Shown here in pieces: positions 15,401-34,224 of a stretch of 64,000 nt of DNA. This DNA comes from Bacilli bacterium (GTDB taxonomy: Bacteria > Bacillota_I > Bacilli_A > ML615J-28 > CAG-698). Position numbers and translations under genes: made by a program. The number at the start of each line of letters is the position of its first letter. The stretch's first letter is position 1. The notes beneath the pieces were generated by a model, which had not been told where the DNA came from, searched no databases, and saw only the letters and a list, made by a program, of their open reading frames with translations. The DNA lies in the NCBI GenBank assembly GCA_031553555.1, contig JAVBLL010000003.1, positions 40,359-104,358 on the forward strand, read 5' to 3'.

Positions 15401-15477
15401 GGCGATCGTGGCGAAGTGGTTAACGCTCTGGATTGTGGCTTCAGCATTCGTGGGTTCGATTCCCATCGGTCGCCCCA
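15401..15477 (+). tRNA. trnH: tRNA-His (anticodon GTG) with G-1
   Basis: Extra 5-prime G pairing with the discriminator C. Anticodon loop TTGTGGC, T-arm GGGTTCGATTCCC and an encoded CCA. Confidence 0.95.
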
Positions 15478-15488
15478 GTTGAGTAACT

Positions 15489-15537
15489 AACAAGATATTG
15501 TACAGTTTTTATTAGACTGTCCAACATCTTGTTTTTT
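15489..15537 (+). terminator. hairpin plus T-run after tRNA-His
   Basis: AACAAGAT ... ATCTTGTT with an inner GTACAG/CTGTCC pairing, followed by TTTTTT. It abuts the stop codon of the minus-strand transposase gene. Confidence 0.6.
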
Positions 15538-16774
15538 ATTTCTCATAAAACTCTTTTTCAAATTGATTGGGTGTTTTATTTTTTAATGTATTATGCGGTC
15601 TGTAATCATTGTAAAATTTAACATATTCTTCAAGCGATTGTTTTACTTCATAAAAATTAGTGAAGACCATTCTATTTAGTTCCTCTTTTCGATAAAAGGA
15701 AAAGAATGACTCTGCAACAGCATTATCATAAGGATTTCCAACATTTGAGAATGATTGAAGTACATCTAAAGATTTAAGCAAATTACAAAATTCATAAGCG
15801 GTATATTGAGTTCCACGATCACTATGAAACATCAAATCTTTTGGCTCATTTCTTTTTTCATAAGCCGCCTTAAATGTATTGATTACTAAATTAGAATTAT
15901 TTATATACGAGGCTTTTGCGCCAACTATTTTTCTGGAAAATAAATCGATAACAATACAAACATAATAGGAATTGCCATTTACTTTTATCGTGGCAATATC
16001 ACTTACCCATACTTTATTTGGAGCATCTTGAGTAAATTTTCGCAATAGCATGTTTTTATAAAATGGATTATAGTTTCCAGAAGGATATTTTTGTTTTTTT
16101 GTAATCAATAGCGGAGACAAATTAAGTTCTTTCATTAAATTATGTATTTTTTTCTCAGATGTTATATAGCCCAAATCTTTTAGTTTGGCTTCAATTTTTT
16201 TTGCACCAAAACGGGATTTGCTTTTTTCAAAAATCTCTTTTATTATTGGTTTTAGTTGTTCATCTTTAATTTCATAAGTAGTCTTGTCAACTCTTCTAAA
16301 ATGGTGATTATAAAACGTCCCTACTTTCACATTGAAAATTCTGCACATTTCTTTTACTGGATATAGACCAAATAGTTTTTCAATTGCTTCAAGTCGTATT
16401 TTCAGAGAAGATGTTTTGAAGCAGCCGGCTTTTTCATATATTTCTATTTGCCTGTTTTTTCTTTTCAATTCATTTTGAAGAGTTATAATATCGCTATAAG
16501 TGAATTTATTTTCATGTCTAGAAGAGTGTACTGTATATAATTTTTTCCAATAATAAAGAGTGCTTCTAGATATATTATATTCATTCATAATTTGACTAAT
16601 AGGAATATTATTATTTATTTTTTCAATTATTTCTTTCTTCACCTTATCCATAAATTTCTCCTAAATAAATAATAACATAAATTTATTTTAATAAAAAATT
16701 AATTATTATAGTAATTATCATATAATTGTTATAAAATATAACAAATAATTTAAAAAAAATTAAAAAAATGTATA
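15499..16774 (-). mobile_element. possible extent of the IS3-like element (ends uncertain)
   Basis: TGTACAGTTTTTATTAG at 15499 versus the reverse complement of AAAAAAATGTATA ending at 16774 gives only a weak inverted-repeat match. No matching target-site duplication was seen. Confidence 0.3.
15536..16651 (-). CDS. IS3-family (IS150-like) transposase, single uninterrupted ORF
   Basis: N-terminal HTH (ISRSTLYYWKK) and an rve/DDE core (WVSDIATI, HSDRGTQYTAYEF, NPYDNAVAESFF, YRPH). Confidence 0.85.
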   Translation of the reverse strand: MDKVKKEIIEKINNNIPISQIMNEYNISRSTLYYWKKLYTVHSSRHENKFTYSDIITLQNELKRKNRQIEIYEKAGCFKTSSLKIRLEAIEKLFGLYPVKEMCRIFNVKVGTFYNHHFRRVDKTTYEIKDEQLKPIIKEIFEKSKSRFGAKKIEAKLKDLGYITSEKKIHNLMKELNLSPLLITKKQKYPSGNYNPFYKNMLLRKFTQDAPNKVWVSDIATIKVNGNSYYVCIVIDLFSRKIVGAKASYINNSNLVINTFKAAYEKRNEPKDLMFHSDRGTQYTAYEFCNLLKSLDVLQSFSNVGNPYDNAVAESFFSFYRKEELNRMVFTNFYEVKQSLEEYVKFYNDYRPHNTLKNKTPNQFEKEFYEK

Positions 16775-16818
16775 CTTTTTTAGATTTTATGATATAATAT
16801 ATTGAAAGGAGAAATGAA

Positions 16819-18141
16819 ATGTTTACAAATATAAAAATTGAAAATTTTCAATCACTAGTTAATCTTGAAGTTGATTTACTGAAGACAAACAACAATCCAA
16901 AAAAAATGATAGTAATTTATGGCGAAAATGGAGTTGGAAAAACAAATTTTGCTACAACTTTTCATATGCTATTAGAAACAATTAGAACCATGTCTATAAG
17001 AGAGAGGTTAGTAGAGTTATTGGAAAAGGATAAGGATAAAAAAGAGTTTTCTTTTTTTGAATCTATCATTAAAGACTATTATAGTGATACAGAGAGTATA
17101 ATTAAAAAATATAAAACACAAGATTCAAATGAAAATATGTTTATTGAATATAAATTTAAAATTAAAAGTAAAAAAGGAACCTATCATTTAGAATATAATA
17201 ACTTTGAATTGGTTTCTGAAAGGCTGGATTATGTTTTGAATTCTAATCAAATTTGTTTTTTTAATATAACGAATAACAAGGATAAAACAAAAATAAACGA
17301 AAAAATTTTCACAAATAAGCAATATTATAAGCAATTTGATGAAGAATTAAATAAGTATTGGGGTAAACATAGTTTTCTATCAATTTTATATAATGAAATA
17401 GATGATAAAAAGAGAGGCTATGTTAAAAAAAATGTAGCAAAAGAATTATTTGATGTATTATTTTTCTTTTTGAGTGTTAATACAAAAATAAAAAATAAAA
17501 ATAAAGAATTTGGTGTCTTTGGAACAAGTAATAAAAATATTCATGATTTTTGTACGGGAAAAATATCAGTAAAAGAAGAAAATGTTTTAGACAAAACTGC
17601 TATAATGTTAAAACAGTTGTTTACTAATATGTATTCAGACATAAAAGATGTATATTATAAAAAAGAGTTTATTGATAATAAAATAAATTATCAATTATAT
17701 GTAAAAAAATTAGTTTATAATAATTTATTAGAGATAAATTTTGTAAAAGAATCTACAGGGACACAAAATTTATTGGATCTTATTCCTTATATTTTACAAG
17801 CATTGAAAGGTAATGTGGTTATTATTGATGAAATGGATTCAGGAATTCATGATATTTTAATCAACAATCTTCTGAAAAATATAAAAGAATATATAAAAGG
17901 TCAATTAATTATTACTACACATAATACTTTGTTACTGGAGTCTGCATTATCTAAAGAAAATATATATATATTTATAGTAAATCATAATGCTGAAAAAAAA
18001 TTAATTCCGCTAACAAGTTTTGATGAACGACAACATAAGAACTTTAATATGAGAAAAAGGTACCTTACAGGTTTATATGGTGGCATACCTTATACAACGG
18101 ATATAGATTTTGATGAAATAGCTAATTATTTAAAGGATTAG
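16819..18141 (+). CDS. ABC-type (AAA_15/AAA_21-like) ATPase of the OLD / AbiLi / AriA class
   Basis: Walker A GENGVGKTN, signature-like STGTQN, Walker B VVIIDEMDSGIHD and TTHN. GGAG RBS. Confidence 0.8.
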   Translation: MFTNIKIENFQSLVNLEVDLLKTNNNPKKMIVIYGENGVGKTNFATTFHMLLETIRTMSIRERLVELLEKDKDKKEFSFFESIIKDYYSDTESIIKKYKTQDSNENMFIEYKFKIKSKKGTYHLEYNNFELVSERLDYVLNSNQICFFNITNNKDKTKINEKIFTNKQYYKQFDEELNKYWGKHSFLSILYNEIDDKKRGYVKKNVAKELFDVLFFFLSVNTKIKNKNKEFGVFGTSNKNIHDFCTGKISVKEENVLDKTAIMLKQLFTNMYSDIKDVYYKKEFIDNKINYQLYVKKLVYNNLLEINFVKESTGTQNLLDLIPYILQALKGNVVIIDEMDSGIHDILINNLLKNIKEYIKGQLIITTHNTLLLESALSKENIYIFIVNHNAEKKLIPLTSFDERQHKNFNMRKRYLTGLYGGIPYTTDIDFDEIANYLKD

Positions 18142-18145
18142 TTAA

Positions 18146-18748
18146 ATGGGGAGAGAACTTAATTATTTAAAAGCTGTAGTAATAGTTCACGGAAAATCGG
18201 AAAAACAAATATGTAATTTTATTAAGTCTAATTTGAGAATTAATATTTTTATTGAAAGCGATAAAAATGGAGAAAAGGCAATTCAAATAACCAGTTTAAT
18301 GAAGAGAACCTTAAATAATAAGAAATTTAAAAGTTTTAAATCATTAAAAAGTTTTTTTGATGACCTTCAAATTGATAAAGAAACAAAGCAAATTGCTGAT
18401 GGTTTTAAAATTTTTATTATAATGGATACTGATGATTGTACAGAACGACAAAAACAAGATTTTCAAAATAAGGCTATGTTCAAAGATCATTGGGCATATG
18501 ATTATATTGTACCAATTTGGAATTGTCCGAATTTGGAGGAAGTTTTAAGGAAATCGGGCATAAAATTCAAGAAAAAAGGCAAAAAACAAAAGGATGAATA
18601 TATTGATATATTTCCTACAGATGAAAAATATAAAAAATCTGATGTATTGCAAATTAAAGAATTTTACAATATATTGGAAAATAATAATAATACTAATATG
18701 AATATTTTCGTTGATTTTTGTCTGGAAATTTTACAAAGAAAACAATAA
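18146..18748 (+). CDS. RloB/AbiLii-like (TOPRIM-type) small protein, partner of the ATPase
   Basis: VVIVHGKSEKQICNF resembles the RloB CEGekTE motif. IIMDTDD is a DxD-type motif. PIWNCPNLEEVL resembles the RloB SNPcFE motif. It lies 4 nt after the ATPase gene. Confidence 0.6.
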   Translation: MGRELNYLKAVVIVHGKSEKQICNFIKSNLRINIFIESDKNGEKAIQITSLMKRTLNNKKFKSFKSLKSFFDDLQIDKETKQIADGFKIFIIMDTDDCTERQKQDFQNKAMFKDHWAYDYIVPIWNCPNLEEVLRKSGIKFKKKGKKQKDEYIDIFPTDEKYKKSDVLQIKEFYNILENNNNTNMNIFVDFCLEILQRKQ

Positions 18749-18848
18749 TATGTGGTGTCAAAAGTGGTGTCAAAAATTTGAGAAAATACTAAATCGATTG
18801 TAGGCGAAATTTTATAGCTAAAATAGAGGATTTAAGCAAATGTAAATT

Positions 18849-18876
18849 TGGGTTACTAACCCCATCGGTCGCCCCA
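18849..18876 (+). repeat. direct repeat of the tRNA-His 3-prime end (att-like)
   Basis: TGGGTTACTAACCCCATCGGTCGCCCCA versus tRNA TGGGTTCGATTCCCATCGGTCGCCCCA (15451-15477). Confidence 0.85.
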
Positions 18877-18888
18877 TTTAAGACTCTT

Positions 18889-18916
18889 AAACTAGGTTGA
18901 AAAGCCTAGTTTTTTT
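18889..18916 (+). terminator. hairpin terminator belonging to the repeated tRNA-His flank
   Basis: AAACTAGG ... CCTAGTTTTTTT. The same structure recurs at about 21487-21514 and about 23749-23777. Confidence 0.7.
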
Positions 18917-19012
18917 GTTGTTTAGGGTGGGTTTGTCGAAATTTGTCGGTCGAAAAATGTAGAAATATATGTTTATATATGATATTCTATATTAAATTAG
19001 GAGTGCACAAAG

Positions 19013-19210
19013 ATGCAAAATAACGAAAAAGATACAGAAAAACATCCGCTATATGAAACGTTTTTTAATATTTTTTCTAAAGAGGATTTAAATCTACCAT
19101 TAGAAAGACAAATTAATAATTTTGAAGAGGAATTAGAAAAATTGTTTTTGAAATACTTAAATTGCGATTCTATAGAAAATGGCATGTTTCCAAAAAGTGG
19201 AAACATATGA
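19013..19210 (+). CDS. small acidic ORF overlapping the RES gene (antitoxin candidate or displaced N-terminus)
   Basis: Good RBS (AGGAG 8 nt upstream). It overlaps the next ORF by 32 nt across an A5 run. Confidence 0.4.
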   Translation: MQNNEKDTEKHPLYETFFNIFSKEDLNLPLERQINNFEEELEKLFLKYLNCDSIENGMFPKSGNI

Positions 19211-20105
19211 AAAAATAAATAGCATTTGTTGTGGATTAATAAAATGTGTACATGAATACTTACAAGGTTTTCCAGCTACTGCATTTAATAGTTTTAAAGG
19301 TATAATGGATGAATTAATTAAATATCCCTTTAAAGTTTATCAAAAATCTAAGGAATATAGTCCAAAAGAATTATATAATGACACATTAAGTTTATACAGA
19401 TGTAGAACAGTTGATGATAATTCAGAGTTGCTTAGAAAAGATTTATTTCATGTGCCATATGATTCGCGTACTAAAATTAATACATGCAGATATAGTATTG
19501 CAGGTTACCCATGTTTATATTTAAGTACAAATTTAAAATTATCATATGCAGAGATTGGCAAGGAAAGGAACGGGTATCAATTTTCTAAATTTCAATTACA
19601 AAGAGATGAGGGAATTCATGGTATTGAAATTAGATTATTAGAATTGGCAGTGAGACCAAAAGATTACTTTGAATATAACAATAATAATATAAAAAAGAAA
19701 AAATTTGATGAAATTGATTTGAGTAAATATGATACTATGCATTATTATCTTTTATGGTATCCCCTAATTGCTTCGTGCTCTTTCATTAGAAAAAAAAGAG
19801 AAGACCCATTTGCTGAAGAATATATAATCCCGCAACTTTTAATGCAATGGCTGAGAAGATATAGTAAAAGAGAAAATGTATTATATGGTATTAGATACTT
19901 TTCTTGTTTTTCTAGAGAGTTATCAGATAATGGATTTAATTATGTTTTTCCTGTGAGTGGAAATAAAAGTGAAAAAAACTCAAATTATTGTAAAATATTA
20001 ACGGAAATTTTTAAGTTAACAACACCATATTATATTGAAGATATTAAGGATATAAAAAAAGTCAAGAAACATTTTTGTAATAAAAATGATTATGATTTTT
20101 TATAA
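19179..20105 (+). CDS. RES-domain protein
   Basis: CRYSIAGYPCLYLSTNLKLSYAEIG supplies the R and E motifs, and YIIPQLLMQWLRR...GIRYFS supplies the S motif. There is no RBS before the ATG at 19179. Confidence 0.65.
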   Translation: MACFQKVETYEKINSICCGLIKCVHEYLQGFPATAFNSFKGIMDELIKYPFKVYQKSKEYSPKELYNDTLSLYRCRTVDDNSELLRKDLFHVPYDSRTKINTCRYSIAGYPCLYLSTNLKLSYAEIGKERNGYQFSKFQLQRDEGIHGIEIRLLELAVRPKDYFEYNNNNIKKKKFDEIDLSKYDTMHYYLLWYPLIASCSFIRKKREDPFAEEYIIPQLLMQWLRRYSKRENVLYGIRYFSCFSRELSDNGFNYVFPVSGNKSEKNSNYCKILTEIFKLTTPYYIEDIKDIKKVKKHFCNKNDYDFL

Positions 20106-20263
20106 TCAAAATAAAAATTAATAATTATTTTAACTAATTAATAAAATCGGTTTGCAACAAAAAAACAGAAAATATGAATCTATATTTAATATTAATATAA
20201 TATTATGAAACAATAGAAAAACTATGATAAAAATTCTTAAAAATGAATAGGAGAGGAACTATA

Positions 20264-21439
20264 ATGCCTGAATTAGATAATAATCATTATTTACCAAGAT
20301 TTGTTTTAGATAATTTTTCAATAAAGATAAGTGCTGATAATAATCGTATTTATGCATATGATTTAGAGCATAAGTTCTTATCTGAACGCAATACAAAAAA
20401 GACTGCTTTTATTAAAAACTTTTATGATGATGAAAGATTGGACGATATAAAGACAATAGAGAAAAAATTAAATTCATTAATAGAAACTCCTGTTGCTAAT
20501 ATTTTTAAAAAAATCATTTCAGAAGAAAAATCAATTTGTATTACCAGAAAAGAACTTGAACTAATTAAAAAATATATGCTAACACAAATATATCGTAATC
20601 TTCGAAATAGTAAGGGGTATGAACTTACATCTACAACAGATGAGATTAAAATGTCTAAGTATAATAAACTCGAAAATGAATCCGAGTTAGATTTTTGGAA
20701 AACAGAACTATTAACAATTATAGAAACAGATTTTGATGAGTTAATAAAAAATAACTTAGTTGGCGTTAGACAATACGCTAATGAAATATATACAGGTTTC
20801 TTAATGTTCTTTAGAACCAACGATGAATTTATTATAAATGATAGTGGATTAGTTGCAGAAAGAGTTCCATATAAGATGAGCAAAGAATTTTATGAAAAAG
20901 CAATGGAGAATGCTGATTTAATGATTGGAATTACAGGTAGGACTGATTATAAAGAAACATTAACAAAGGAATATGAAAATGGAAGTAGTTATCTTGACAA
21001 TATGTTGATTTTCCCAATTGCCTCAAATTACTTTATTGCTTGTGTACATCCTCAATGGAAGAATCTTGTAATGTATCCTGAAATATTCAGGAATGATTCA
21101 AATATTCATTATGAATCAAACATCTTAATTAATCATTTAAATATACCAAAATGTGATTATGTTAATATAAAGTTAATGACTAATCAAGCATCAATTAATA
21201 AGTATAAGCATCCAGATGATAAATATACTTATAAAATAAACGTTCTAAATAATCAAGAGACTATATATATAAATTTATTAACTATGAATGAAGCATATAA
21301 GTATATAATTTTTAAAAATTTAGAGAATGTGATAAATAGTATTTCAGTATATATTGCAAATCAAGATAGAATTTCAAATATCAAGAATGATTATAAGCCA
21401 TTATTAGAGCAAATTAAGAAAAAGATGAATATTGGTTGA
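20264..21439 (+). CDS. DUF4238-family protein
   Basis: N-terminal NNHYLPRFVLDNF matches the H-y-x-P-x-F-y-L-x-x-F opening of DUF4238. AGGAGAGG RBS precedes the ATG at 20264. Confidence 0.7.
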   Translation: MPELDNNHYLPRFVLDNFSIKISADNNRIYAYDLEHKFLSERNTKKTAFIKNFYDDERLDDIKTIEKKLNSLIETPVANIFKKIISEEKSICITRKELELIKKYMLTQIYRNLRNSKGYELTSTTDEIKMSKYNKLENESELDFWKTELLTIIETDFDELIKNNLVGVRQYANEIYTGFLMFFRTNDEFIINDSGLVAERVPYKMSKEFYEKAMENADLMIGITGRTDYKETLTKEYENGSSYLDNMLIFPIASNYFIACVHPQWKNLVMYPEIFRNDSNIHYESNILINHLNIPKCDYVNIKLMTNQASINKYKHPDDKYTYKINVLNNQETIYINLLTMNEAYKYIIFKNLENVINSISVYIANQDRISNIKNDYKPLLEQIKKKMNIG

Positions 21440-21461
21440 TACGAGTGACGACAAGTACCAA

Positions 21462-21474
21462 ATCGGTCGCCCCA
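21462..21474 (+). repeat. direct repeat of the tRNA-His 3-prime end (att-like), followed by the conserved flank
   Basis: ATCGGTCGCCCCA is followed by TTTAAGACTCTTAGACTAGGTTGAGAAAACCTAGTTTTTT, as at 18877-18916. Confidence 0.75.
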
Positions 21475-21647
21475 TTTAAGACTCTTAGACTAGGTTGAGA
21501 AAACCTAGTTTTTTGTTGTTATAATGTTGTAGTAAAATATCGAAAATTTAAATAATTTTAACCCAAAATAATTAGAACAAAGGAAAAGCAATATAATTAT
21601 GCTAATTATCTTTTTGTTTATTAAGAAAAGATATAAAAAATATTATA

Positions 21648-21701
21648 TTCTTCCTTATTGACATTATGTACTTAATGGTATATAATGTCAATAAGGAAGA
21701 A
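21648..21701 (+). promoter_or_regulatory. perfect 20-bp inverted repeat embedding a consensus promoter
   Basis: TTCTTCCTTATTGACATTAT (21648-21667) and ATAATGTCAATAAGGAAGAA (21682-21701). TTGACA is at 21658-21663, the spacer is 17 nt, and TATAAT is at 21681-21686. Confidence 0.75.
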
Positions 21702-21705
21702 TAAT

Positions 21706-22086
21706 ATGAAAAAACGAAATACAATTCAGCGCTCTTTAATTTTCCAAACCATGAAGGAGTTAAAGAAACATATCACGGCAGAAGAATTATATAATATAAT
21801 TGCGAAAAAATATGATGATATAAGTAGAACTACTGTTTATAGAAATTTAAACTTATTATCAAATACTGGCGAAATTCGTAAAATAGAGATACCAGGGGGG
21901 GCAGATTGTTATGATTATTTAATTCATAAGCATTATCATATGAAATGTATAAATTGCGGAAACATCTTTGATGTGAAAATGGATTTTATAGAAGATTTGC
22001 AGGATAGAATTACAGACACTAGCGGAAATGAGTTTATAGATCACGATATTATTTTTAAGGGCATCTGTTCCAATTGTAATAAATAA
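21706..22086 (+). CDS. Fur-family metalloregulator (Fur/Zur/PerR subtype unresolved)
   Basis: TVYRNLNLLSNTGEIRKIE wHTH, HKHYHMKCINCG and CSNC (two CxxC pairs). RBS AAGGAAG precedes the ATG at 21706. Confidence 0.85.
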   Translation: MKKRNTIQRSLIFQTMKELKKHITAEELYNIIAKKYDDISRTTVYRNLNLLSNTGEIRKIEIPGGADCYDYLIHKHYHMKCINCGNIFDVKMDFIEDLQDRITDTSGNEFIDHDIIFKGICSNCNK

Positions 22087-22196
22087 TTTACAATTAGTTA
22101 AATAAAATATTTAATATTAATTAAATCATTAAATAAAAAATGCGATATACGAAGCGCATTAAAAATTCGTAAATTAATTAATAAAGGAGAAAAATT

Positions 22197-22763
22197 ATGA
22201 GAAGTTTTACTACATTAGATTTACAATACGCTCACAGGTTTTATGGTTTTAAAGGAGAAGCTCAATATTTACATGGGCATACAGGAATACTAACAATTGA
22301 GGTTGAGGATAAAATAAATTCAGGAGTTAATATGGTATTTCCTTGTAATGAAATTAAGAAGACCGCCTGGGAAGTTTTACAAAACTTTGATCATGCTTTA
22401 GTTTTAAGAGAGGACGATCCATTACTTCCTGCCATTCTTGGCGTTTATGAAGCACAAGGTATAAAAAATGGTGCACCAAGTAATAAGCAAAAAGGTCTTG
22501 CTTTCAAAACTGAACTAGCAACTGCATATCCTGAATGCCGTTTAGTTGTTACTAAAGAAACCATGACAGTTGAAGGCATGATTAAAATAGTTTATGATTT
22601 ATTAAAAAATAAATTAAATATTGTTAAACTTACTTTTACAAGTGGGGTAAATGGTGCTACACAAGAATATACATATGAAAAAGAAAGAGACAATTGTCTC
22701 TTATGTGGTATCGCTTTGAATGAAAATCATATTTGCCCAAAATGCGGATATAAAAAAATATAA
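22197..22763 (+). CDS. 6-pyruvoyl-tetrahydropterin synthase / QueD-family protein with a C-terminal zinc ribbon
   Basis: YAHRFYGFKGEAQYLHGHTGILTIEV carries the PTPS H...HGH zinc motif. The C-terminus has CLLCG...CPKCG. Confidence 0.75.
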   Translation: MRSFTTLDLQYAHRFYGFKGEAQYLHGHTGILTIEVEDKINSGVNMVFPCNEIKKTAWEVLQNFDHALVLREDDPLLPAILGVYEAQGIKNGAPSNKQKGLAFKTELATAYPECRLVVTKETMTVEGMIKIVYDLLKNKLNIVKLTFTSGVNGATQEYTYEKERDNCLLCGIALNENHICPKCGYKKI

Positions 22764-22991
22764 AATTAAATTTATTTAATAGACTTTAATAAATAAATTT
22801 GTAATAATATTTTTTAATATAATAAACTACTAGTATTAATATAAAATTATATTTAAAATATACAAATATATATGGGAGAAAATTCATGAGAACTATTTTG
22901 CCAAAAGATTCCAAAATATATTATATAAATTGATTTTTTATCTAAACAATGTATAATACAATCAATATAAAATATTTGGTAAGATGGAGAT

Positions 22992-23582
22992 ATGGATATG
23001 GAAAACGAAATACTAGCATATAAATTAAAATATATATCCTCGCGAGTTTCGTTAATAATTTTATGTATTATTTTTCCATTCATTATCGTTGTTATGACTA
23101 ATATTCGCATAAACGTTTATGCTATGGAAAACGAATATGGTTTTGCTGGCGGCAACGGAAGTGAAAGAAGTCCGTTTTTAATCGCAAACGCTAATAAGCT
23201 TGACAATGTACGAAATTATGCTGTAAGAACTGCACTCCCTGACGGAGATCCTAATCAAAGATTGGCAAGTGGTTATTATTTTAAGCTTACTAGTGATATA
23301 AATATGTCAGATTATCTGTCCGAAGGTAATTTAGGATATAATGACGGTAAAGGATGGTTGCCTATTGGTCAGTGGGCAGAAAAGGAATGTAGCATTTGTG
23401 ATTTTACTACTATAATAGAAACAATCCCAGCCATTAATAATGGTATACTTTCTAATATTGAGATTACAATTATTATTGTCAGCTCAGTATTGACATTATC
23501 ATTTGGCGGTTTTGCAATATTTTGGTTTATAATTAAGAAGAAGAAATTTGCAGACTTAATTGCTTTAATTAAGAAAAAATAA
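22992..23582 (+). CDS. membrane-anchored fragment-like surface protein
   Basis: N-terminal and C-terminal TM helices. The middle part (GNGSERSPFLIANANKLDNVRNY) resembles the start of large adhesin-type proteins, so this is likely a truncated remnant. Confidence 0.4.
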   Translation: MDMENEILAYKLKYISSRVSLIILCIIFPFIIVVMTNIRINVYAMENEYGFAGGNGSERSPFLIANANKLDNVRNYAVRTALPDGDPNQRLASGYYFKLTSDINMSDYLSEGNLGYNDGKGWLPIGQWAEKECSICDFTTIIETIPAINNGILSNIEITIIIVSSVLTLSFGGFAIFWFIIKKKKFADLIALIKKK

Positions 23583-26056: not shown

Positions 26057-26061
26057 ATAGA

Positions 26062-27756
26062 TTGTTAAGAAAGATACTAAATATATATTTAGTATCTTTC
26101 CCCTTTGTTAATACCCGCGAATATATATATGATATTGCAAATCGCTTAGATAAAGAAATTTTGCCTAATAGCGGCGGAACAAAGACTTATACTTACCACC
26201 CGGATGGCAGTATAAAAAGCGAGAAGATGAATAATGGAACTCCAATTGCGTATAATTATGAAAAAGGTAGACTTGTGAAGCGCGGATTGGTTTCGTATGG
26301 ATACGATAACCTTGGCAATTGTACCAATTTTGGTGGACTAAACTTAGCATGGGAACGCGGGAGCCTGCTAAAGGGCTATGGTACTCATGTTTATGATTAT
26401 AATGCCCAAGGAGTAAGGTATAGAAAAACCGGAGGAACAACTTCAATCTACTTCCACGACGGGACAAAACTTTTAGAAGAGCAGAGGGGCAATGTGCAAA
26501 TTAGGTATCTATATGATGCTGAAGGTATAATTGGATTTAGTATTCCTAGTGATAGAAACAATGACGATTATTTTTTCTCTAAGGATGTTAGCGGAAATGT
26601 TAGGGCGATTTTTAGAGCACAGGTCGTAGATGGTATTTATCCAAAGACAACTGAGGTGGCTAGGTACGAGTATGATGCTTGGGGAAATACCACAGTTTCG
26701 TCAATAGGAACTAACACCATAGGTGGGGTTTCAGTAGCTCAGTTTAACCGAATCAGATGGAAGGGACAGTATCAAGACGAATCAGATTTATATTATATTG
26801 GCGGAAGGTATTATAGCCCAGCGACCAAGCAGTATTTAAGTCCTGCTGGTCCCGAGTCAGCTTTTGGCAATGCTGCAATAATTTACGGACTAAATCAATA
26901 CTCTCTTTGCTTGACAAATTCTGTAAACATGGAGTATAATAATTATACGATTGCAACCAATGCTGAGCTTAGCTATGACCCTGATGCATTGTCTAACTGG
27001 AAGCTCTGGTGGAGTAGATACGGCGGATTTGTAATAGGTGGCGTTTTGGTTGTAGTAGGCATAATTGCTTGTCTTATACCAGGTGGTCAAGCTATTGGCG
27101 CTGGTTTAATAGTATCCGGGGTGTCACAAGCAATTTCGACAGGGCTGCAGCTTGCGGGAGTCAAATCCAAGCTGGCAATGCAGATAATGTCAGGACTTAA
27201 CATTGTTTGCGGACTGATAATGAGCTTTACACCACTGGCCCCTATGGGGTGGAGCATGATTGGTGCAGGAATTGGCGGCTATATTGCTGAAAAGTTAGGC
27301 GGAAGCTATGCTGTAGGTTGGGTAGTAGGTAGCATTGTTGGCGGGATAATTGGTAGTTATGCTTATAAAAGCGTTCAGGCTATGAGAACTAATGCGGCAG
27401 CAAGAGCTAATGCTAAGGCTTTGGCAAGTGCAGCGGGAGCGGAAGCAGCAAGAGATGCCAAAGTAGCTGAATTGCAAAATACGCTTACAAAAAAACAATT
27501 AAAAGAAGTCGCTGCAGTCGTGGGTGGTTATGATAAAGTAACAGGAGATATTGCAGTTGGAGTAAAATATTTTGATAAATTGCCATATTGTGCAGAAGCT
27601 CGGGTTGTAGAGCAATTAGGTGGAATGAGTAATATAAGTAACATAGTTATGACTTCGGCAATTCGCCCTCATAATATGACGGTAGTTGCAGTATGCAACT
27701 ATTGTCAGTCAATATACTCTACTACAAATTTTCTACCAGGAACTCCGTTTCAGTAA
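26062..27756 (+). CDS. 5-prime-truncated RHS/YD-repeat toxin with a glycine-zipper hydrophobic linker and a C-terminal deaminase-like domain
   Basis: YD repeats (YTYHPDGS, YGYDNLGN, YEYDAWGN) and an RHS core end (RWKGQYQDESDLYYIGGRYYSPATKQYLSPAG). The hydrophobic Gly-rich region spans about 27024-27372. CAE is at 27589-27597 and CNYC at 27694-27705. No plausible ATG or RBS lies at the 5-prime end. Confidence 0.75.
   Translation: MLRKILNIYLVSFPFVNTREYIYDIANRLDKEILPNSGGTKTYTYHPDGSIKSEKMNNGTPIAYNYEKGRLVKRGLVSYGYDNLGNCTNFGGLNLAWERGSLLKGYGTHVYDYNAQGVRYRKTGGTTSIYFHDGTKLLEEQRGNVQIRYLYDAEGIIGFSIPSDRNNDDYFFSKDVSGNVRAIFRAQVVDGIYPKTTEVARYEYDAWGNTTVSSIGTNTIGGVSVAQFNRIRWKGQYQDESDLYYIGGRYYSPATKQYLSPAGPESAFGNAAIIYGLNQYSLCLTNSVNMEYNNYTIATNAELSYDPDALSNWKLWWSRYGGFVIGGVLVVVGIIACLIPGGQAIGAGLIVSGVSQAISTGLQLAGVKSKLAMQIMSGLNIVCGLIMSFTPLAPMGWSMIGAGIGGYIAEKLGGSYAVGWVVGSIVGGIIGSYAYKSVQAMRTNAAARANAKALASAAGAEAARDAKVAELQNTLTKKQLKEVAAVVGGYDKVTGDIAVGVKYFDKLPYCAEARVVEQLGGMSNISNIVMTSAIRPHNMTVVAVCNYCQSIYSTTNFLPGTPFQ
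26069..26100 (+). terminator. strong hairpin directly after the 407-aa gene (no clear T-run)
   Basis: GAAAGATACTAAATA ... TATTTAGTATCTTTC. It lies inside the first codons of the RHS track ORF, which are therefore unlikely to be coding. Confidence 0.5.
26911..26940 (+). promoter_or_regulatory. promoter-like TTGACA-18 nt-TATAAT inside the RHS coding sequence
   Basis: TTGACA at 26911-26916 and TATAAT at 26935-26940. The same sequence is reiterated in four downstream junction modules. Confidence 0.55.
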
Positions 27757-27776
27757 CGTAAAAGGAGAAGAATATT

Positions 27777-28361
27777 ATGAAAGATTTATATAAAAATAAA
27801 GAAGATTGTATGGCTTTTTCTAATGAAACATTAGAAAAATATTTATTCGATAAAATCAAGAAAGAACAAGGCATTGATTTAGTTTATAGTTATTGCGATG
27901 ATAAACATAGTGATTTATTTCTTGAAATAAAAAGAAGCAACCAATTAAGTCCAGATGAACCAAATGATTATCTTGATAAAATTCATAGAATTGATTGTGT
28001 ATCTTTTGATGGAGATAGAGATGATTTTACAATCCATTTTCATAATTCAGCTATGGTCTCGGTATTTCTTTTTGACGCACAATTTATGTTTATTGATGAT
28101 ATTTGTAAAAAAGATGTGCGGGGCATAGAAGGGTGCATTGTCTATGAAGGATATCTTCGAGATAAGACGCATGAGCAAATTCTTGAAATATTCTTTAATC
28201 TATTAAAGATATTGCATAGTACGACAAAAATTACGTATGAGGAAAATTTTGTTTCCCGTATCGGTTACTATTCAAAATATAATTATACGATTAAACTAAT
28301 TAAACCCAATTGTGAAAAACAGGCTATTCAGTATGACAATTTTCTGTTTCTAATCAATTAG
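27777..28361 (+). CDS. putative cognate immunity protein of the deaminase-like toxin
   Basis: It starts 20 nt after the toxin stop with an AAAAGGAG RBS. No recognised motif. A paralog lies downstream. Confidence 0.55.
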   Translation: MKDLYKNKEDCMAFSNETLEKYLFDKIKKEQGIDLVYSYCDDKHSDLFLEIKRSNQLSPDEPNDYLDKIHRIDCVSFDGDRDDFTIHFHNSAMVSVFLFDAQFMFIDDICKKDVRGIEGCIVYEGYLRDKTHEQILEIFFNLLKILHSTTKITYEENFVSRIGYYSKYNYTIKLIKPNCEKQAIQYDNFLFLIN

Positions 28362-28498
28362 TTTAAACAAAACATACTAAGAAAGGTTATTACTTAAAGA
28401 GTGAAGTTATAAAAATTTAAATGTAGATATAAGAGTTATTAGTGATTTTTTACCTGGCATCATATTTCAATAGAAACCTAAAAAAGGAGATAACGATT

Positions 28499-29098
28499 AT
28501 GTCATTATATCAACCAAATGAATTATGTTTACAATTTGAAGATTGGGAAATAACAAAATATTTAATTGAACCACTTAAATTAAGATTTCCTGAATTGGGG
28601 CTTCTTGACTTTGATAATAAGGTTGAAGATAGATTAACAACTGGAATAAAATCTATTACTTTTTATCCAGATAGAGCAGATATTTTAAAAAGGGATTTTT
28701 TTGGTGTTTTTTTTGAAAAAGGCAAAATGGTTGCAATATTGATTTATGATAGAGAATTTGTGTTTATTGATGACTCTATGAAGGAATTTATCGGTCATTA
28801 AAATACCGACGATAATGCCTTTTATCAGGGAACATTGAGAAATAAGACACATAAGGAAATTTTAGAGTTAGTTAAAGCTTTTATTGAATTATTAATTGAT
28901 ACAGAGGATTATCAAATTTTAGAAAATAAAATAAGTAAGTATAATACCGAAGATATGCTACATAGGGCAATTGATTTTCCTGAATGGAAAGCTGCTCATC
29001 CATATTGTTATTATAATGTTTTTCTTAAAAAACAAAAACCAGGTGAATCTATTCAATTTGAAAACATTACATTTCACATAGTAAATTCTTTTAAGTAA
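28499..29098 (+). pseudogene. paralog of the 27777-28361 immunity gene interrupted by one in-frame TAA
   Basis: Track ORFs 28442-28801 and 28835-29098 are in the same frame, separated by TAA 28799-28801. FVFIDD and LRNKTHKEILEL match FMFIDD and LRDKTHEQILEI of the paralog. Confidence 0.6.
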
Positions 29099-29106
29099 CG
29101 ACAGTT

Positions 29107-29243
29107 AAAAAAGGGATCAGGGAGCGTGTAGGATTTATTTCTTCCCGCTCTTTTTCTTTATCTCTTAATTTGACAAATCCCGTAAACATGGAGTATAATA
29201 GTTATATAATTGCAACCAATGACGAGATTAGTTATGATCTATA
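29107..29243 (+). repeat. junction module 1: hairpin, then TTGACA-18-TATAAT, then an RHS-derived remnant
   Basis: TTGACA 29170-29175 and TATAAT 29194-29199. The remnant encodes NMEYNSYIIATNDEISYD, compared with NMEYNNYTIATNAELSYD in the RHS gene. Confidence 0.8.
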
Positions 29244-29348
29244 GTCAATGCCTAATTGAAAATTTTGTTGGAATCAAGTTCCTCTTGGTGCAAAAACACA
29301 TAAATTGCTTACAGATTTTTGGCGCAACTTTTAAAAATAGGAGGTCAC

Positions 29349-29855
29349 ATGAAAAGCATAGAGGCATTAAAAAAAAGGTTATCGGCGGAAAATACCTTGC
29401 TGATACAAGATGAACATGGATGCGTAAAAACAGTTGAATTTAAATGGGAAAATTCTGCGACAGACACTGAGATTTCTCAATTTGAAAATGATAATAAAAT
29501 TATTTTGCCTGAAGACTACAAAAAATTTTTAAAGATCTCTAATGGAACTACGCTTTTTATGGATACATGGGGATACCAGATTTATGGATTAAGTGAAATT
29601 ATGGAAGAGACAGAAAAAGCAAAATGGCCTGATTTCAAAGATACATGGCTTGTCTTTGGAAGACATCAATCAGATGGCGATTTGTATATTTTTGATTTGG
29701 AAAAAGTTAAAAATAATGAAAAGGTATACCTTTTATACGGCATGGAATGCGACCATCCTTCCGATTATTTTTATTTAGGTAGTTTTGGAACATGGCTTGA
29801 TAGATTAATTGTGTCTCAAGGTTCACAATATTGGTTATGGTTTCCTAACCATTAA
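29349..29855 (+). CDS. SMI1/KNR4 (SUKH-1) family immunity protein
   Basis: ILPEDYKKFLKISNGTTLF, IYGLSEI and LVFGRHQSDGDLYIFD are typical SMI1/KNR4 features. AGGAGG RBS precedes the ATG at 29349. Confidence 0.8.
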   Translation: MKSIEALKKRLSAENTLLIQDEHGCVKTVEFKWENSATDTEISQFENDNKIILPEDYKKFLKISNGTTLFMDTWGYQIYGLSEIMEETEKAKWPDFKDTWLVFGRHQSDGDLYIFDLEKVKNNEKVYLLYGMECDHPSDYFYLGSFGTWLDRLIVSQGSQYWLWFPNH

Positions 29856-29890
29856 ACTAAATCAAAGCAACCAATTCAAAAGAATTTACC

Positions 29891-29990
29891 AAAAAAGAGT
29901 GTGAAGGGTTCATTTCTTTCTCACTCTTTTCATTATCTCTTAATATTTGACATATCCAGCGAACATGGAGTATAATAGTTATATAATTGA
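29891..29990 (+). repeat. junction module 2
   Basis: Hairpin AAAAAAGAGTGTGAAGGGTTCATTTCTTTCTCACTCTTTT. TTGACA 29947-29952 and TATAAT 29971-29976. Confidence 0.8.
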
Positions 29991-30153
29991 ACAGTAGTCA
30001 ATATTTAGGTAATGTCGAGACTCATGTATATAATTCCTCAGGACAATGGTTATTCATTAATGAAAATCTAACATTTAATACTGCTTTTTGTTTAAGTGAA
30101 AACCAGTTTTATTATTTATTAAGCATAGGAAAAGTGGGAGGTCACTAAAAATT

Positions 30154-30621
30154 ATGAACAAAACAAATATGATATCAATTAACTTTAGATTAGTTATAAC
30201 AATGATGACATCTCATGAACTATCAAATGAAAAAGTGGATAAGATTTTGCATATTATAAAAAACCAATTTAATTATACTAATGAAATATTTAGGTTTACA
30301 AATAAGGGTTTTCATGAAGTGGACATAGATTTATTTGATGTGATATTTTCAAGTACAGATATTTATAAGGATTTAGACAAGTTAATATATATTTGTGAAG
30401 AAATACTAGTTACAATTGATAATTCAATAGATTTTATTATTGGTAGTTTAGACACTAGTAGTAGGGTATTAGAATATGAAAAAAATCATGATATTAGTAG
30501 TGGATTACTAATTACATCTCAATTAATTCAAGGAACTAATCCTTACTATTCTTCCAAGACATGTAATGCATATGTTAAAAATCTAGATGATGATTGTTTT
30601 GGGGTATATTCTAGTGTTTGA
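30154..30621 (+). CDS. hypothetical protein in an immunity slot
   Basis: GGGAGG RBS. It is preceded by junction module 2. No motif recognised. Confidence 0.5.
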   Translation: MNKTNMISINFRLVITMMTSHELSNEKVDKILHIIKNQFNYTNEIFRFTNKGFHEVDIDLFDVIFSSTDIYKDLDKLIYICEEILVTIDNSIDFIIGSLDTSSRVLEYEKNHDISSGLLITSQLIQGTNPYYSSKTCNAYVKNLDDDCFGVYSSV

Positions 30622-30651
30622 TGAACCCATATTTAATCAATTGAATATAGC

Positions 30652-30835
30652 AAAAAGAACGTCAAGAATTCATTTCTTCCTCGCTCTTTTTCTTTATCTC
30701 TTAATTTGACAAATCCCGTAAATATAGAGTATAATAATTATACGATTGCAACTAATGCTGAGCTTAACTATGACCCAGAGGCACTGTCTAGTTGGAAGCT
30801 TTGGTGGAGTAGATAGGGCTTGTTTGTAATAGGTA
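30652..30835 (+). repeat. junction module 3 with the longest RHS-derived remnant
   Basis: TTGACA 30706-30711 and TATAAT 30730-30735. The remnant reads NIEYNNYTIATNAELNYDPEALSSWKLWWSR followed by a TAG where the RHS gene has TAC. Confidence 0.85.
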
Positions 30836-30928
30836 GGTATTGTCGGCTATTAAAGCAAATATAGATACTGGTGACTGGGGAAAGGATTTGGCAATAATAT
30901 TATATTCCTTTTTGACTGGTTTTAAAAT

Positions 30929-31339
30929 ATGGAGGAACTAAAAGTGGAAGTTATTAAAAAAATAAATGAGATTTGTTGGGCGGACTGTTCTACAGATATT
31001 TTTCAAATTGACTATGAAAAAATTATAATAAAAATAGTCTTTTATGGAGAAATCGAACGTTATGTAACTATTCAATGCAACAATTATATTGGATTCACGT
31101 TTGTTGGACATTGGGATGAAAATATTATTGAAGATATTAATATTGATACTGAAGGTGAATTAATAAAACAGTCATTAAAAAACATACGACGCAATTATTA
31201 TAAAAATCCTAATGATAATTTTTCTTTTTTGGGCGGAGGGGTAAAAAAGTTTGATAATATTTGGTATCAATTAAACATAAAGCTAATTGATGGAAATATT
31301 ATCAAAATAGTTTGCGAGAGTTTTTTGCTTAATTTATAG
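30929..31339 (+). CDS. hypothetical protein in an immunity slot
   Basis: ATGGAGG context. It follows junction module 3. No motif recognised. Confidence 0.5.
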   Translation: MEELKVEVIKKINEICWADCSTDIFQIDYEKIIIKIVFYGEIERYVTIQCNNYIGFTFVGHWDENIIEDINIDTEGELIKQSLKNIRRNYYKNPNDNFSFLGGGVKKFDNIWYQLNIKLIDGNIIKIVCESFLLNL

Positions 31340-31434
31340 CACCTGTTTATGTTGGATTAGAAGGCGTAGATAATCTTTTATTTCTTCCATGAGGATATTA
31401 AAAAAATGTTTTGAATCAAGGAGCTATAATTATT

Positions 31435-32114
31435 ATGAATAAAATACCAAATCACTTAATAAGAAACTTTGACGTTATTAAAACTGCTGCTTTCCCTGAT
31501 AACTCTTTTAAATTATCAGGAGAAATAAAATGTGATTGCGGGGCAAACATTTTTAGTTTGTTTAAAACAAAAAAATTCAAACTTTGGAAGAAAAACTTTA
31601 TTGGCAAAATTATAAAAAGACTATAACCGAAGCAAGTGCATTAGTGCCACTAGAGTGTCGTAATGGTCACTATGGTTTGATTGAAATAGGCAATATATTG
31701 GGGTATACAAAAGAACATAAATTTCATCCATTAAAAGATATTATTGAATTAAACCAGAAAATGAAAAATTTTCCACCAATACCACTTATTTGCTCGGCTA
31801 AGTGTACGCACTGCGAAAAAGAAATTCTAATCTTCGATATCTCTAAGCATGGCTATAATGCTTTAACCACTAACACCAAATACTTAAACAATTATAAAAT
31901 GCAGAAAAAAAGTTCTTGTCGCAAATGTAAAAATGATATATACAAGGTTCATGTCAAAATAGACCACATGGGCAAGGATGATGTTTTGCAAGAGGGTAGC
32001 AACGTAATAAGCGAAGAAAACTGGGTTGATGCATTTGATTGGATTACAATAGATATAGAGTGTTCAAAATGCGGCAACATCAGCAAGTCTTGGGTAAATT
32101 TGGAAGTAATGTAA
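31435..32114 (+). pseudogene. multi-CxxC zinc-ribbon protein split by a frameshift at an A7 run (or two overlapping ORFs)
   Basis: Track ORFs 31411-31626 and 31584-32114 overlap. A 1-nt change in the A7 run at 31569-31575 would fuse ...SLFKTKK to IQTLEEKLYWQ.... Motifs present are CDCG, CTHCEKE, CRKCKND and CSKCGN. Confidence 0.45.
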
Positions 32115-32121
32115 AACCATC

Positions 32122-32207
32122 AAAAAAGAGCGTGAAGAATTCATTTTTCCTCGCTCTTTTTCTTTATCTTCTAATTTGACAAATCTCATAAATATGAAGT
32201 ATAATAT
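32122..32207 (+). repeat. junction module 4
   Basis: Hairpin AAAAAAGAGCGTGAAGAATTCATTTTTCCTCGCTCTTTTT. TTGACA 32176-32181 and TATAAT 32200-32205. Confidence 0.8.
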
Positions 32208-32270
32208 TTTTAAGAAAATGGCGAACCTTTTTATAACTTTTGTGACTATATAAGTGAGGAGGTAAAAACT

Positions 32271-33899
32271 TTGAATAAAAATGAGTTAAAAGAAAAAATA
32301 GTTGATTATGTTGATAAAGTATTTTTTTATTGTGTTAAAAGATGTAGTAACAGAATGGATGCAGAAGATTTATCTCAAACAATACTTTTAGAAGTAATTA
32401 AAAATATCGATAAAGGGGCTCATATTGAAAACTTTGATTATTATATTTGGGCAGTGTGTAAAAATCAATATAATACTTATTTAAGAAGAATAATTAAGGA
32501 TAGAAATAATATTAGTTTTGTAGATGATATTAATGAAATAGAAGATTTTAAAACATCTCTTGATAAAATATTGGAAGACGAAAAAATCAGAAGAATGAAC
32601 CAAGCCATTAAACTATTGAGTAAAGACTACGCAGAAATACTTTACGCTTATTATGTAGAAGATAAAACTCTTAAGTTCATAGCCAAAGAACAATCATTAC
32701 CTCTAGGAACAGTTAAAAGAAAACTGTATGTTATTAGACAAAAGTTAAAGGAGTATTTAAAAATGGAAAAATTAAATGGCAAAAAAGCATATGTGCCAAA
32801 GAATTTCACATCTTGTATAGCATGTCAAAATTTTGGAACTTATAATCCATATGATTATGTTAAGTCACTAATAAACAAAAATTTATTATATCATTCATAT
32901 AATAATTATTGTAGTTTGGAAGATTACTCATTAGAACTAGGTATTTCGTTACCTTATATTAAAGATATTGTAGATCAACTTGTAAATGCTACATTATTAT
33001 TTAAAACAAAAAATAATAAATATGTTACTAATTTCCCGTATATTACAAAAGAAATCTTAAATAAAAGTAATAACGTTTTACTAGAAAACCATAAAGAATA
33101 TATTGATGAATTAATTAAGTTTGCTAAAGCTCATATAGATGAGTATCGGGAATTAGTAACTTATGCAAATCTTTCAAATGGTGAATTAATGTGGAGTTTT
33201 TGTTTGTATTTAAATTATATAGTTTTAAATGATGTAAAACCTGAATTTTCCTATCATGAACATCCCGGAGGAGGAAGATGGGATTTCTACATGACAGATT
33301 TGAGAGATATGAATGATTTAATGTATGATATGTCAATTAATACATATAAAGATGGAATTGATAAAGTTAATGCATATGCATTTCCATGTGCAAATGATAC
33401 TGGAAGGTTAGCGTTTAATAAATGTGCCAATGGTCAAGAGAATTATGTTCTATTAAATGAATTATTACATCATTGTAATGCTACTTATGATAGTGTTGTA
33501 AATAGAATATTTTGTGACCATAAAAATCAAATTAACGATTATATTGATAAAGGATTTTTAAAAGTAGTAGATAACAAGATTAAGTTTAACTTCCCATTCT
33601 TTAAATATCATGATTTCAAAAAAGTAGAAAAAATGATGTATAGTGATGAGCTAAATGTAGCAAAAGAAAAATTACAAATAATAATTAATAAATTAGTAAG
33701 TAACATGAAAAATTATCTTCCGGAATATTTAAATGATTATACTAATTCATTAATCTCTAATCAATTATGGAATATTCAAAGTTTAGTAGTAGAAGCATTT
33801 AAAGAAGCTAAATTATTAGATTTAAAAGAAGAAAAAGAATACTTTCCATATAATATGATTATGATAACATCAGATATAAATATGATTTATGAAAAATAG
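32271..33899 (+). CDS. sigma-70/ECF-like region 2 and region 4 protein with a roughly 370-aa C-terminal extension
   Basis: DAEDLSQTILLEVIKNI is region-2-like. LSKDYAEILYAYYVEDKTLKFIAKEQSLPLGTVKRKLYVIRQKLKEY is a region-4 HTH. TTG start lies 8 nt after GGAGG. Confidence 0.7.
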   Translation: MNKNELKEKIVDYVDKVFFYCVKRCSNRMDAEDLSQTILLEVIKNIDKGAHIENFDYYIWAVCKNQYNTYLRRIIKDRNNISFVDDINEIEDFKTSLDKILEDEKIRRMNQAIKLLSKDYAEILYAYYVEDKTLKFIAKEQSLPLGTVKRKLYVIRQKLKEYLKMEKLNGKKAYVPKNFTSCIACQNFGTYNPYDYVKSLINKNLLYHSYNNYCSLEDYSLELGISLPYIKDIVDQLVNATLLFKTKNNKYVTNFPYITKEILNKSNNVLLENHKEYIDELIKFAKAHIDEYRELVTYANLSNGELMWSFCLYLNYIVLNDVKPEFSYHEHPGGGRWDFYMTDLRDMNDLMYDMSINTYKDGIDKVNAYAFPCANDTGRLAFNKCANGQENYVLLNELLHHCNATYDSVVNRIFCDHKNQINDYIDKGFLKVVDNKIKFNFPFFKYHDFKKVEKMMYSDELNVAKEKLQIIINKLVSNMKNYLPEYLNDYTNSLISNQLWNIQSLVVEAFKEAKLLDLKEEKEYFPYNMIMITSDINMIYEK

Positions 33900-33954
33900 T
33901 ATAGTAGAAATAAATTAGTTGTATTAAAACTAACGGTCAATTTAATAGAAAATA

Positions 33955-34095
33955 GAAAAGCAATTATAGGTGAATTTTAATAGCTATAATAGAGAATTTA
34001 AACAAATATAAGTAATGAATGTCCCTATTGATTGTCCCATTTAAGAATAGTAAGGTTGAGTAGAAATACTTGATCTTTTTTGATGTTTTTGAGGA
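33955..34095 (+). repeat. degenerate copy of the islet right end, the tRNA-His 3-prime fragment and the flank
   Basis: ATTATAGGTGAATTTTAATAGCTATAATAGAGAATTTAAACAAATATAAG resembles 18800-18848. ATTGATTGTCCCATTTAAGAATAG resembles CATCGGTCGCCCCATTTAAGACTC. Confidence 0.5.
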
Positions 34096-34224
34096 TTTAT
34101 CGAACTATGCATGATGAATATTGTTGAAGTCGAAAATTATTTTTTAATATAGTATAGTTATAAATATTAACTTTATACATAATGCTGCATTCACAGGCAG
34201 ATTATGTAAGTTCTGCTATTCAAA

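Follow-up and report, generated by a model that had tools for sequence, protein, structure and literature searches.

The tRNA-His gene in a 64,000-nt stretch of the genome of a Bacilli bacterium (contig JAVBLL010000003.1 of assembly GCA_031553555.1; the whole stretch is called the window here, and all positions refer to it) is followed by a tandem array of four small islets, A to D, whose borders carry copies or remnants of the tRNA-His 3' end and its flanks. We read the array as the outcome of serial site-specific accretion at tRNA-His and subsequent loss of the recombination modules, which would have left decayed islets resembling cis-mobilizable elements (CIMEs), and we give this reading a probability of about 0.6. 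Tandem islands that have decayed beside a tRNA gene are a known type of structure, and the array adds a new example. The GC content of the window is about 27%.

Copies of the tRNA-His 3' end and the boundary units

ARAGORN found tRNA-Trp and tRNA-His and no other tRNA genes in the 64 kb, and the intact tRNA-His gene is the predicted primary attachment (att) site. Based on an exact scan of the window, the 3' end of tRNA-His, ATCGGTCGCCCCA, occurs at 15465, within the gene itself, and again at 18864 and 21462 only. The copy at 18849-18876 matches tRNA-His in TGGGTT and in the last 16 nt (16/16 at 18861-18876), whereas the exact match at 21462 covers 13 nt. A decayed copy at 34024-34039 is identical to tRNA-His at 11 of 16 positions, and its five differences are all C>T or G>A, that is, transitions in the GC-to-AT direction. 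All these copies have the orientation of tRNA-His. The repeats are real, local and far beyond chance. A 26-mer, GTCGAAATTTGTCGGTCGAAAAATGT, is also present without change at 18935 and 23796, with a chance expectation of 0. In these respects the positions reported in a preliminary description of this DNA, made from its letters alone, were confirmed. That description also had TTTAAGA and a hairpin after every copy of the core. This is true of the three displaced copies, where the hairpin ends in a T-run, but the tRNA-His gene itself is followed by GTTGAG and by a different, much stronger hairpin.

A profile search with the boundary unit located four units in the window, at about 18.8, 21.45, 23.75 and 34.0 kb (profile matches 18832-18975, 21441-21565, 23727-23839 and 33998-34141), numbered 2, 3, 5 and 4 in Table 1. 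All of them lie on the plus strand, co-oriented with tRNA-His and within 19 kb downstream of it. A weak fifth match was the tRNA-His gene itself, and neither the profile nor single-sequence nhmmer searches gave a credible match in the other 45 kb of the window. The boundaries listed earlier hold, but unit 5 had not been recognized as one; its tRNA core is decayed beyond recognition. The core region of unit 4 is homologous to the unit at 18.8 kb (nhmmer E = 1.2e-8 and 2.5e-14), and units 2 and 3, which bracket islet B, are about 93% identical over 59-60 nt. Core decay broadly grows with distance from tRNA-His (16/16, 13/13, unrecognizable, 11/16). Comparison of the window with itself revealed the boundary units as the only DNA that the islets have in common.

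A stable hairpin with a T-run is kept in all four units (z = -2.5 to -4.9), and a terminator scan detected three of the four. The stems vary between units by paired changes, for example CTAGG/CCTAG versus CTAGA/TCTAG, which suggests that they are under selection for termination.

The left arm of the units resembles tRNA-His

Between the left flanks of units 2 and 4, at 18781-18848 and 33946-34013, identity is about 82% over 68 nt, and none of 2000 shuffles reached the score of this match. The similarity had been noticed in the preliminary description, but there the flank was taken for non-tRNA sequence and its repetition for an unusual feature. In local alignment, the left flank of unit 2 is instead collinear with tRNA-His positions 2-46, the aligned starts being CGATTGTAGGCGAAAT-TTTATAGCT... 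in unit 2 and CGATCGT-GGCGAAGTGGTTAACGCT... in tRNA-His. The local score was 26 against 14.2 ± 2.6 for shuffled sequences (p = 0.0015), and, with every 69-nt window of the region ranked by tRNA-His score, the arm fell within the highest 0.3-0.4%. The resident tRNA-His fitted it better than tRNA-Trp or any of 37 foreign tRNA-His 5' parts; derivation of the arm from a foreign tRNA-His was rejected on this ground. The flank probably represents the 5' part of a tRNA-His-like att arm in decayed form. Since the arm of unit 2 is collinear with tRNA-His and the 34-kb arm is homologous to it, the simplest reading of units 2 and 4 is that each is a decayed pseudo-tRNA-His sequence of full length. Their arms are about 82% identical to each other and about 65% identical to the resident tRNA-His. 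We also considered that the units might be functional tRNAs and rejected this, as no Rfam match was obtained and the pseudo-tRNA parts showed no cloverleaf-like stability against shuffles (z = 0.07 and -1.66).

The right flank has an equally ordinary explanation. It contains the conserved intrinsic terminator, and a terminator is what any element that rebuilds the tRNA 3' end must supply, so its repetition is to be expected. The 59-60-nt, 93% identical repeats around islet B would accordingly be an extended segment of att identity and no anomaly.

Unit 2 is a mosaic: its 5' part is identical to tRNA-His at 30 of 46 positions (about 65%) whereas its last 16 nt are all identical (Fisher p = 0.006). 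Unit 3 has no pseudo-tRNA 5' arm, the stop codon of the DUF4238 gene lying 22 nt upstream of its core, and the sequence changes abruptly from unrelated to 13/13 identity. To judge from these alignments, the sharp junctions in units 2 and 3 suggest a crossover near the T-loop.

Table 1. Features of the tRNA-His locus and its downstream array, in window coordinates.
Feature	Position	Strand	Evidence	Description
tRNA-Trp (CCA)	15309-15382	+	ARAGORN; Rfam tRNA, 68 bits	Upstream partner of the target gene
tRNA-His (GTG), intact	15402-15477	+	ARAGORN; Rfam	Last 13-16 nt form the repeated core
Islet A	15478-18780			IS3-family transposase gene and AbiL-like pair
Bidirectional hairpin terminator, strong	15484-15538	.	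Fold -21.7 kcal/mol, z = -6.8; inverted repeat	Between tRNA-His and the transposase stop codon
IS3-family DDE transposase gene	15536-16651	-	Pfam rve/HTH_21; NCBIfam transpos_IS3	Single fused open reading frame, 371 aa
AbiL-like two-gene defence module	16819-18748	+	PADLOC AbiLi, 2.9e-44	440-aa AAA_21 ATPase 16819-18141; 200-aa partner 18146-18748
Boundary unit 2	18781-18975	+	Alignment, profile, folding	Putative pseudo-tRNA-His about 18794-18876; 16/16 core 18861-18876; TTTAAGA; terminator hairpin 18889-18912 with T-run; 26-mer 18935-18960
Islet B	18976-21440	+		Cargo 19013-21439: 65-aa open reading frame; 308-aa protein 19179-20105; DUF4238 protein 20243-21439
Boundary unit 3	21441-21565	+		13/13 tRNA-His core 21462-21474; TTTAAGA; terminator 21487-21511
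Islet C	21566-23726	+		Cargo 21646-23582: Fur-family regulator 21685-22086; PTPS/QueD-like protein 22197-22763; 196-aa membrane protein 22992-23582
Boundary unit 5	23727-23847	+	E = 2.4e-23 to unit profile	Terminator 23749-23772; exact 26-mer 23796-23821
Islet D	23848-33945	+		Cargo to 33899: secreted 407-aa protein; Rhs-core toxin 26062-27756; immunity/orphan-toxin array 27777-32114; 542-aa protein 32271-33899
Boundary unit 4, distal array end	33946-34145	+		Putative pseudo-tRNA-His; 11/16 core 34024-34039; TTTAAGA; G-U-rich hairpin 34052-34077; T-run

Recombinase genes

No match to a tyrosine or serine recombinase domain (Phage_integrase, Resolvase, Recombinase) was obtained for any open reading frame (ORF) scanned in the window. 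Between 12 and 38 kb the scan took in the ORFs of 70 aa or more, except four small or antisense ones, and elsewhere the larger ORFs, mostly of at least 100 aa. This agrees with the preliminary description, which saw no gene for such an enzyme between 15.4 and 34.1 kb, but the region is not free of recombinase genes, because a DDE transposase gene that had been overlooked occupies 15536-16651. Its product matched the transpos_IS3 model at 1.2e-92 with 311 bits (cut-off 160) over profile positions 2-369 of 369, that is, as a full-length OrfAB-type protein. It is at most 36% identical to plasmid-borne IS3 transposases and is recorded on one contig only. The gene ends 58 nt from tRNA-His, with the bidirectional terminator common to both, and occupies the usual site of an island integrase. 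We found no terminal inverted repeats linking 15478-15540 with 16652-16820. Loss of an islet A integrase through the insertion sequence (IS) is plausible, though speculative.

Probable serial accretion and the alternatives to it

Under the reading that we prefer, site-specific recombination probably brought related integrative elements into the tRNA-His 3' end on several occasions, three or four at the least. The attachment site of the element (attP) probably carried a tRNA-His-like segment and a terminator. Recombination of attP with the tRNA-His 3' end would rebuild the gene from the 3' part and terminator of the element, and the old 3' end, with its TTTAAGA-terminator flank, would be displaced to the far side of the element and joined there to the tRNA-like arm that the element brought. 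Repeated insertion would stack the islets with the youngest adjoining the gene, and the displaced ends would be the units seen at 18.8, 21.45, 23.75 and 34.0 kb. The recombinase and mobility modules would later have been deleted, beside tRNA-His perhaps through IS3 activity, leaving cargo bracketed by att remnants as CIME-like islets, while the terminators would have been kept because they still end transcription of the islets. Accretion of this kind explains why the units are co-oriented and confined to the downstream side and why unit 2 has a mosaic junction. It likewise explains the repeats around islet B and why the distal core has decayed by transitions only. Where att arms come from one element family, they should also be closer to each other than to tRNA-His, as is seen in units 2 and 4. 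Intact cores, the putative counterparts of attL and attR in a CIME, stand on either side of islets A and B, and the two islets have no integrase or relaxase domains. A course of integration, decay to a CIME and further accretion has been documented for streptococcal elements of the integrative and conjugative (ICE) and the integrative and mobilizable (IME) kinds (PMC5704250), and tRNA-gene fragments are a common product of mobile-element integration (PMC9897764). Serial insertion at one tRNA gene had been put forward in the preliminary description; orientation, downstream position, the junction in unit 2 and the AT-biased distal decay support it, although the details given there of flank, recombinase and cargo do not all stand.

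Several observations weigh against this reading. Decay does not rise steadily with distance, since the 23.75-kb unit is worse preserved than the one at 34 kb. Conservation of the arms is patchy: the P arm is present in islet A, whose P' arm is a different one, and is missing from islets B and C, which have the P' arm. The statistic behind a tRNA origin of the left arm is moderate (p ~0.002-0.004), and no unit is matched by the Rfam tRNA model even at E <= 10. Self-comparison of the window revealed no element backbone common to the islets. Six-frame translations of the intergenic gaps, judged by eye, contained no integrase remnants and had stops in all six frames. Finally, no related element, attP or empty site was found in the collections searched.

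The same units could in principle have arisen by local duplication. Unequal crossing-over or gene conversion would have multiplied a pseudo-tRNA-His/terminator module without any site-specific recombinase, and the module would then have been a homology anchor at which homologous recombination, for instance following uptake of DNA, placed unrelated cargo. The changes that units 2 and 4 have in common relative to tRNA-His would fit such copying, as would the absence of an integrase, and the same genome grows the Rhs array of islet D by homologous recombination at a repeated junction. We nevertheless consider it unlikely, given that uniform decay would not leave a 16/16 block beside a region of about 65% identity (p = 0.006), that gene conversion from the live tRNA gene would have to halt precisely at the T-loop, and that the cargo segments have no sequence in common. 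It is quite unlikely that the islets are still mobile cassettes, inserted and excised at tRNA-His by a recombinase acting in trans from elsewhere in the genome or from a helper element, with the 120-200-nt unit as the recombination site and a logic like that of an integron or of a CIME mobilized in cis or trans. The islets are indeed small and co-oriented, each with a conserved end unit and the newest-looking one adjoining the primary site, and the 26-nt block that is 100% identical in two units within surroundings of about 75-80% identity could be a protein-binding site. However, a run of 26 identical nt is only slightly surprising when the match that holds it spans 76 nt at 79% identity (estimated p ~0.1), at least the sites at 23.75 and 34.0 kb, with their degraded cores, are probably dead, no fold is conserved in the pseudo-tRNA parts (z-scores above), and only one context per islet gene is recorded in assemblies. 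More doubtful still is the proposal that an unlinked recombinase stacks self-expressed defence and toxin cassettes behind tRNA-His in integron-like fashion, in which case the pseudo-tRNA-His/terminator unit would be a working recombination site of a cassette-capture system, with the tRNA 3' end as its primary site and with two putative recognition elements, namely the tRNA-like arm and the GTCGAAA block of 26 nt.

The adjoining IS3-family transposase would be a natural suspect as the agent that built the structure, as its gene is intact, full-length and placed 58 nt from tRNA-His where an island integrase usually lies. IS3-family transposition produces target duplications of only a few bp, which does not agree with repeats of 13-60 nt matching a tRNA; moreover, terminal inverted repeats went undetected and such a gene occurs in islet A only, so that we rate this as very improbable. 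We give almost no probability to a resemblance by chance, or to an intergenic repeat that is dispersed over the genome and has nothing to do with tRNA-His. An AT-rich genome does hold many hairpins with T-runs, but zero-mismatch copies of the core are restricted to tRNA-His and two downstream sites, the profile finds nothing in the other 45 kb, and viral and metagenome collections gave no true matches. Within the window, chance or a dispersed repeat is essentially excluded. For serial accretion, it is proposed as part of the reading that a site-specific recombinase would have made the junctions, that the unit nearest tRNA-His would be the youngest and that the integrases would have been lost.

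Cargo of the islets

The AbiL-like pair of islet A has relatives in several settings. The 200-aa partner is 64% identical to the partner in a homologous pair found on gut Acholeplasma-like contigs, where the element that carries the pair also encodes serine recombinases, a relaxase and TnpV, and this context marks the pair as mobile cargo. Gut metagenome contigs L121-L124 (about 5.9-16.2 kb in locus coordinates) show a compact element that holds the closest well-sampled relatives of the pair, together with two or three large serine recombinases, relaxase, TnpV and radical-SAM genes, and that is present in many human-gut assemblies. In the metagenome-assembled genome (MAG) of another Bacilli member the pair is chromosomal, beside Fur and iron ABC-transporter genes. 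Contexts vary, and among those inspected no homologous pair lay at a tRNA-His gene.

The cargo labels given before are borne out in part: database matches support an AbiLi-like ATPase, DUF4238 (Pfam 8e-29 for the islet B protein), a Fur-family protein, a PTPS/QueD-like protein, an Rhs core and a SUKH immunity protein. By contrast, the RES label of the 308-aa protein in islet B corresponds to a weak, sub-threshold hint of a RES-like motif (E = 0.21), and the TOPRIM label has no database match behind it, the motif having been seen by eye only. Nor does every islet carry conflict-type genes, as had been stated: the cargo of islet C, a Fur-family regulator, a QueD/PTPS-like enzyme and a membrane protein, is not of that type. 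Directly upstream of the Fur-family gene, at 21646-21703, a 26-nt palindrome (96% perfect) overlaps a 12/12 consensus promoter and is probably an autoregulatory operator.

Islet D begins with about 1 kb (23848-24832) that holds no ORF above 47 aa; short hydrophobic ORF fragments on its minus strand suggest a decayed membrane-protein gene. The interior is a classic orphan toxin/immunity array arisen by homologous recombination, with immunity genes, among them one for a SUKH protein, and orphan toxin-junction remnants. A segment of 85-140 nt is present in five copies, at 26902-27039, 29122-29298, 29899-29983, 30658-30834 and 32128-32212. In the Rhs ORF, the segment codes for the junction that follows the Rhs core (...LTNSVNMEYNNYTIATNAELSYDP...). 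Each of the four copies further downstream heads a truncated toxin remnant that ends in a stop codon, ahead of immunity-like ORFs. Every copy holds a 12/12 consensus promoter (TTGACA, 18 nt, TATAAT), and a hairpin precedes the four downstream ones. The 542-aa protein at the end of the islet has an N-terminal extracytoplasmic function (ECF) sigma domain. A perfect 32-nt palindrome lies at 26069-26100, between the gene of the secreted 407-aa protein and the Rhs ORF, and probably breaks assemblies, since two Logan contigs (L001 and L002) both end at it.

Directly past the last unit, positions 34298-35605 encode an AAA_14/DUF4143 ATPase that PADLOC lists as candidate PDC-S01 (3.2e-50). Accessory-looking genes continue up to about 43 kb with no further unit, so older borders may be decayed beyond recognition. 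Elsewhere in the window, a second pair of direct repeats of about 150 nt and 81% identity lies far from the tRNA locus (54370-54520 and 58943-59089, 4.5 kb apart), and a 29-nt tandem triplet at 10329-10415 is placed just upstream of a SatD-family gene.

Comparative searches

The lineage is phylogenetically isolated. Among ten window proteins that were looked up, six were singletons at 90% identity and four were not in the collection, and searches for the exact proteins recovered nothing beyond Logan contigs from SRR23967707/09 that are 100% identical. The 391-aa lipoprotein encoded beside tRNA-Trp (13829-15004) had no homolog among 5.8 billion clustered proteins, and the best homolog of the ABC permease at 8017-9636, the one neighbouring core-type protein tested, was 45% identical.

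When 185,579 species genomes were scanned with the 3' 26-mer of tRNA-His, 111 loci were recovered, none of them in this genome or a close relative; they belonged to Bacillales, Erysipelotrichales, Acholeplasmatales and Bacilli MAGs. Identity to the tRNA reached 72/76 at best, no locus had tRNA-Trp upstream, and none had a flank like the units. Judging by the taxa with the same tRNA end and by the best protein matches, the lineage is probably an isolated low-GC one within Bacilli that resembles Erysipelotrichales or Acholeplasmatales. In 18 low-GC and Erysipelotrichales/Acholeplasmatales-type loci, whose ORF translations were judged by eye, no obvious integrase-like ORF lay directly downstream. 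Searches with the boundary unit gave no match in viral contigs, two chance matches to metagenome contigs of 48% GC, and nothing relevant by BLAST in a phage collection. No related element was found in the viral, metagenome, genome, phage and plasmid collections.

Relation to known systems and significance

The array is comparable to the tandem CIME and ICE/IME arrays of which ICESt1/ICESt3-CIME of Streptococcus thermophilus is an example (PMC5704250). In both, att-bounded segments without integration or transfer genes stand in tandem at one target gene, and newcomers insert at the att site that holds the intact target end. The present array differs in that the target is the tRNA-His gene of an isolated, low-GC, Bacilli-like lineage, the islets are very small (2.3-10 kb), the att remnant would be a full-length tRNA-like arm with a terminator, and no functional ICE, IME or prophage with the same att is known here. 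Partial duplication of a small-RNA 3' end at distal borders is also seen in tRNA-fragment scars (PMC9897764) and in the ssrA islands of Dehalococcoides (PMC3146451). Usually each such island keeps its own recombinase, whereas none is left here. Integron cassette arrays resemble the locus in having small co-oriented cassettes with a repeated end site, stacked at a primary site. Yet no IntI is encoded by the primary site, the units have no attC-like fold, and the cassettes here carry their own promoters and terminators. The likeness to Rhs and contact-dependent inhibition (CDI) orphan toxin-immunity arrays, in which the core-to-toxin junction is repeated before truncated toxins and immunity genes, concerns the interior of islet D and not the units at tRNA-His.

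The locus would be important only if it were true that the units are active sites for a recombinase in trans. For annotation, the four units mark the borders of the islets, and the flanks that had seemed unusual have ordinary explanations. The locus also serves as a clean worked example of att-site archaeology, in which a mosaic junction, decay by transitions only and the retention of terminators can all be seen. The tRNA-His gene of this Bacilli-like lineage, low in GC and poorly sampled, has gathered genes for defence (an AbiL-like pair, and a DUF4238 protein beside a possible RES-like protein), for metal regulation and for an Rhs toxin with its immunity.

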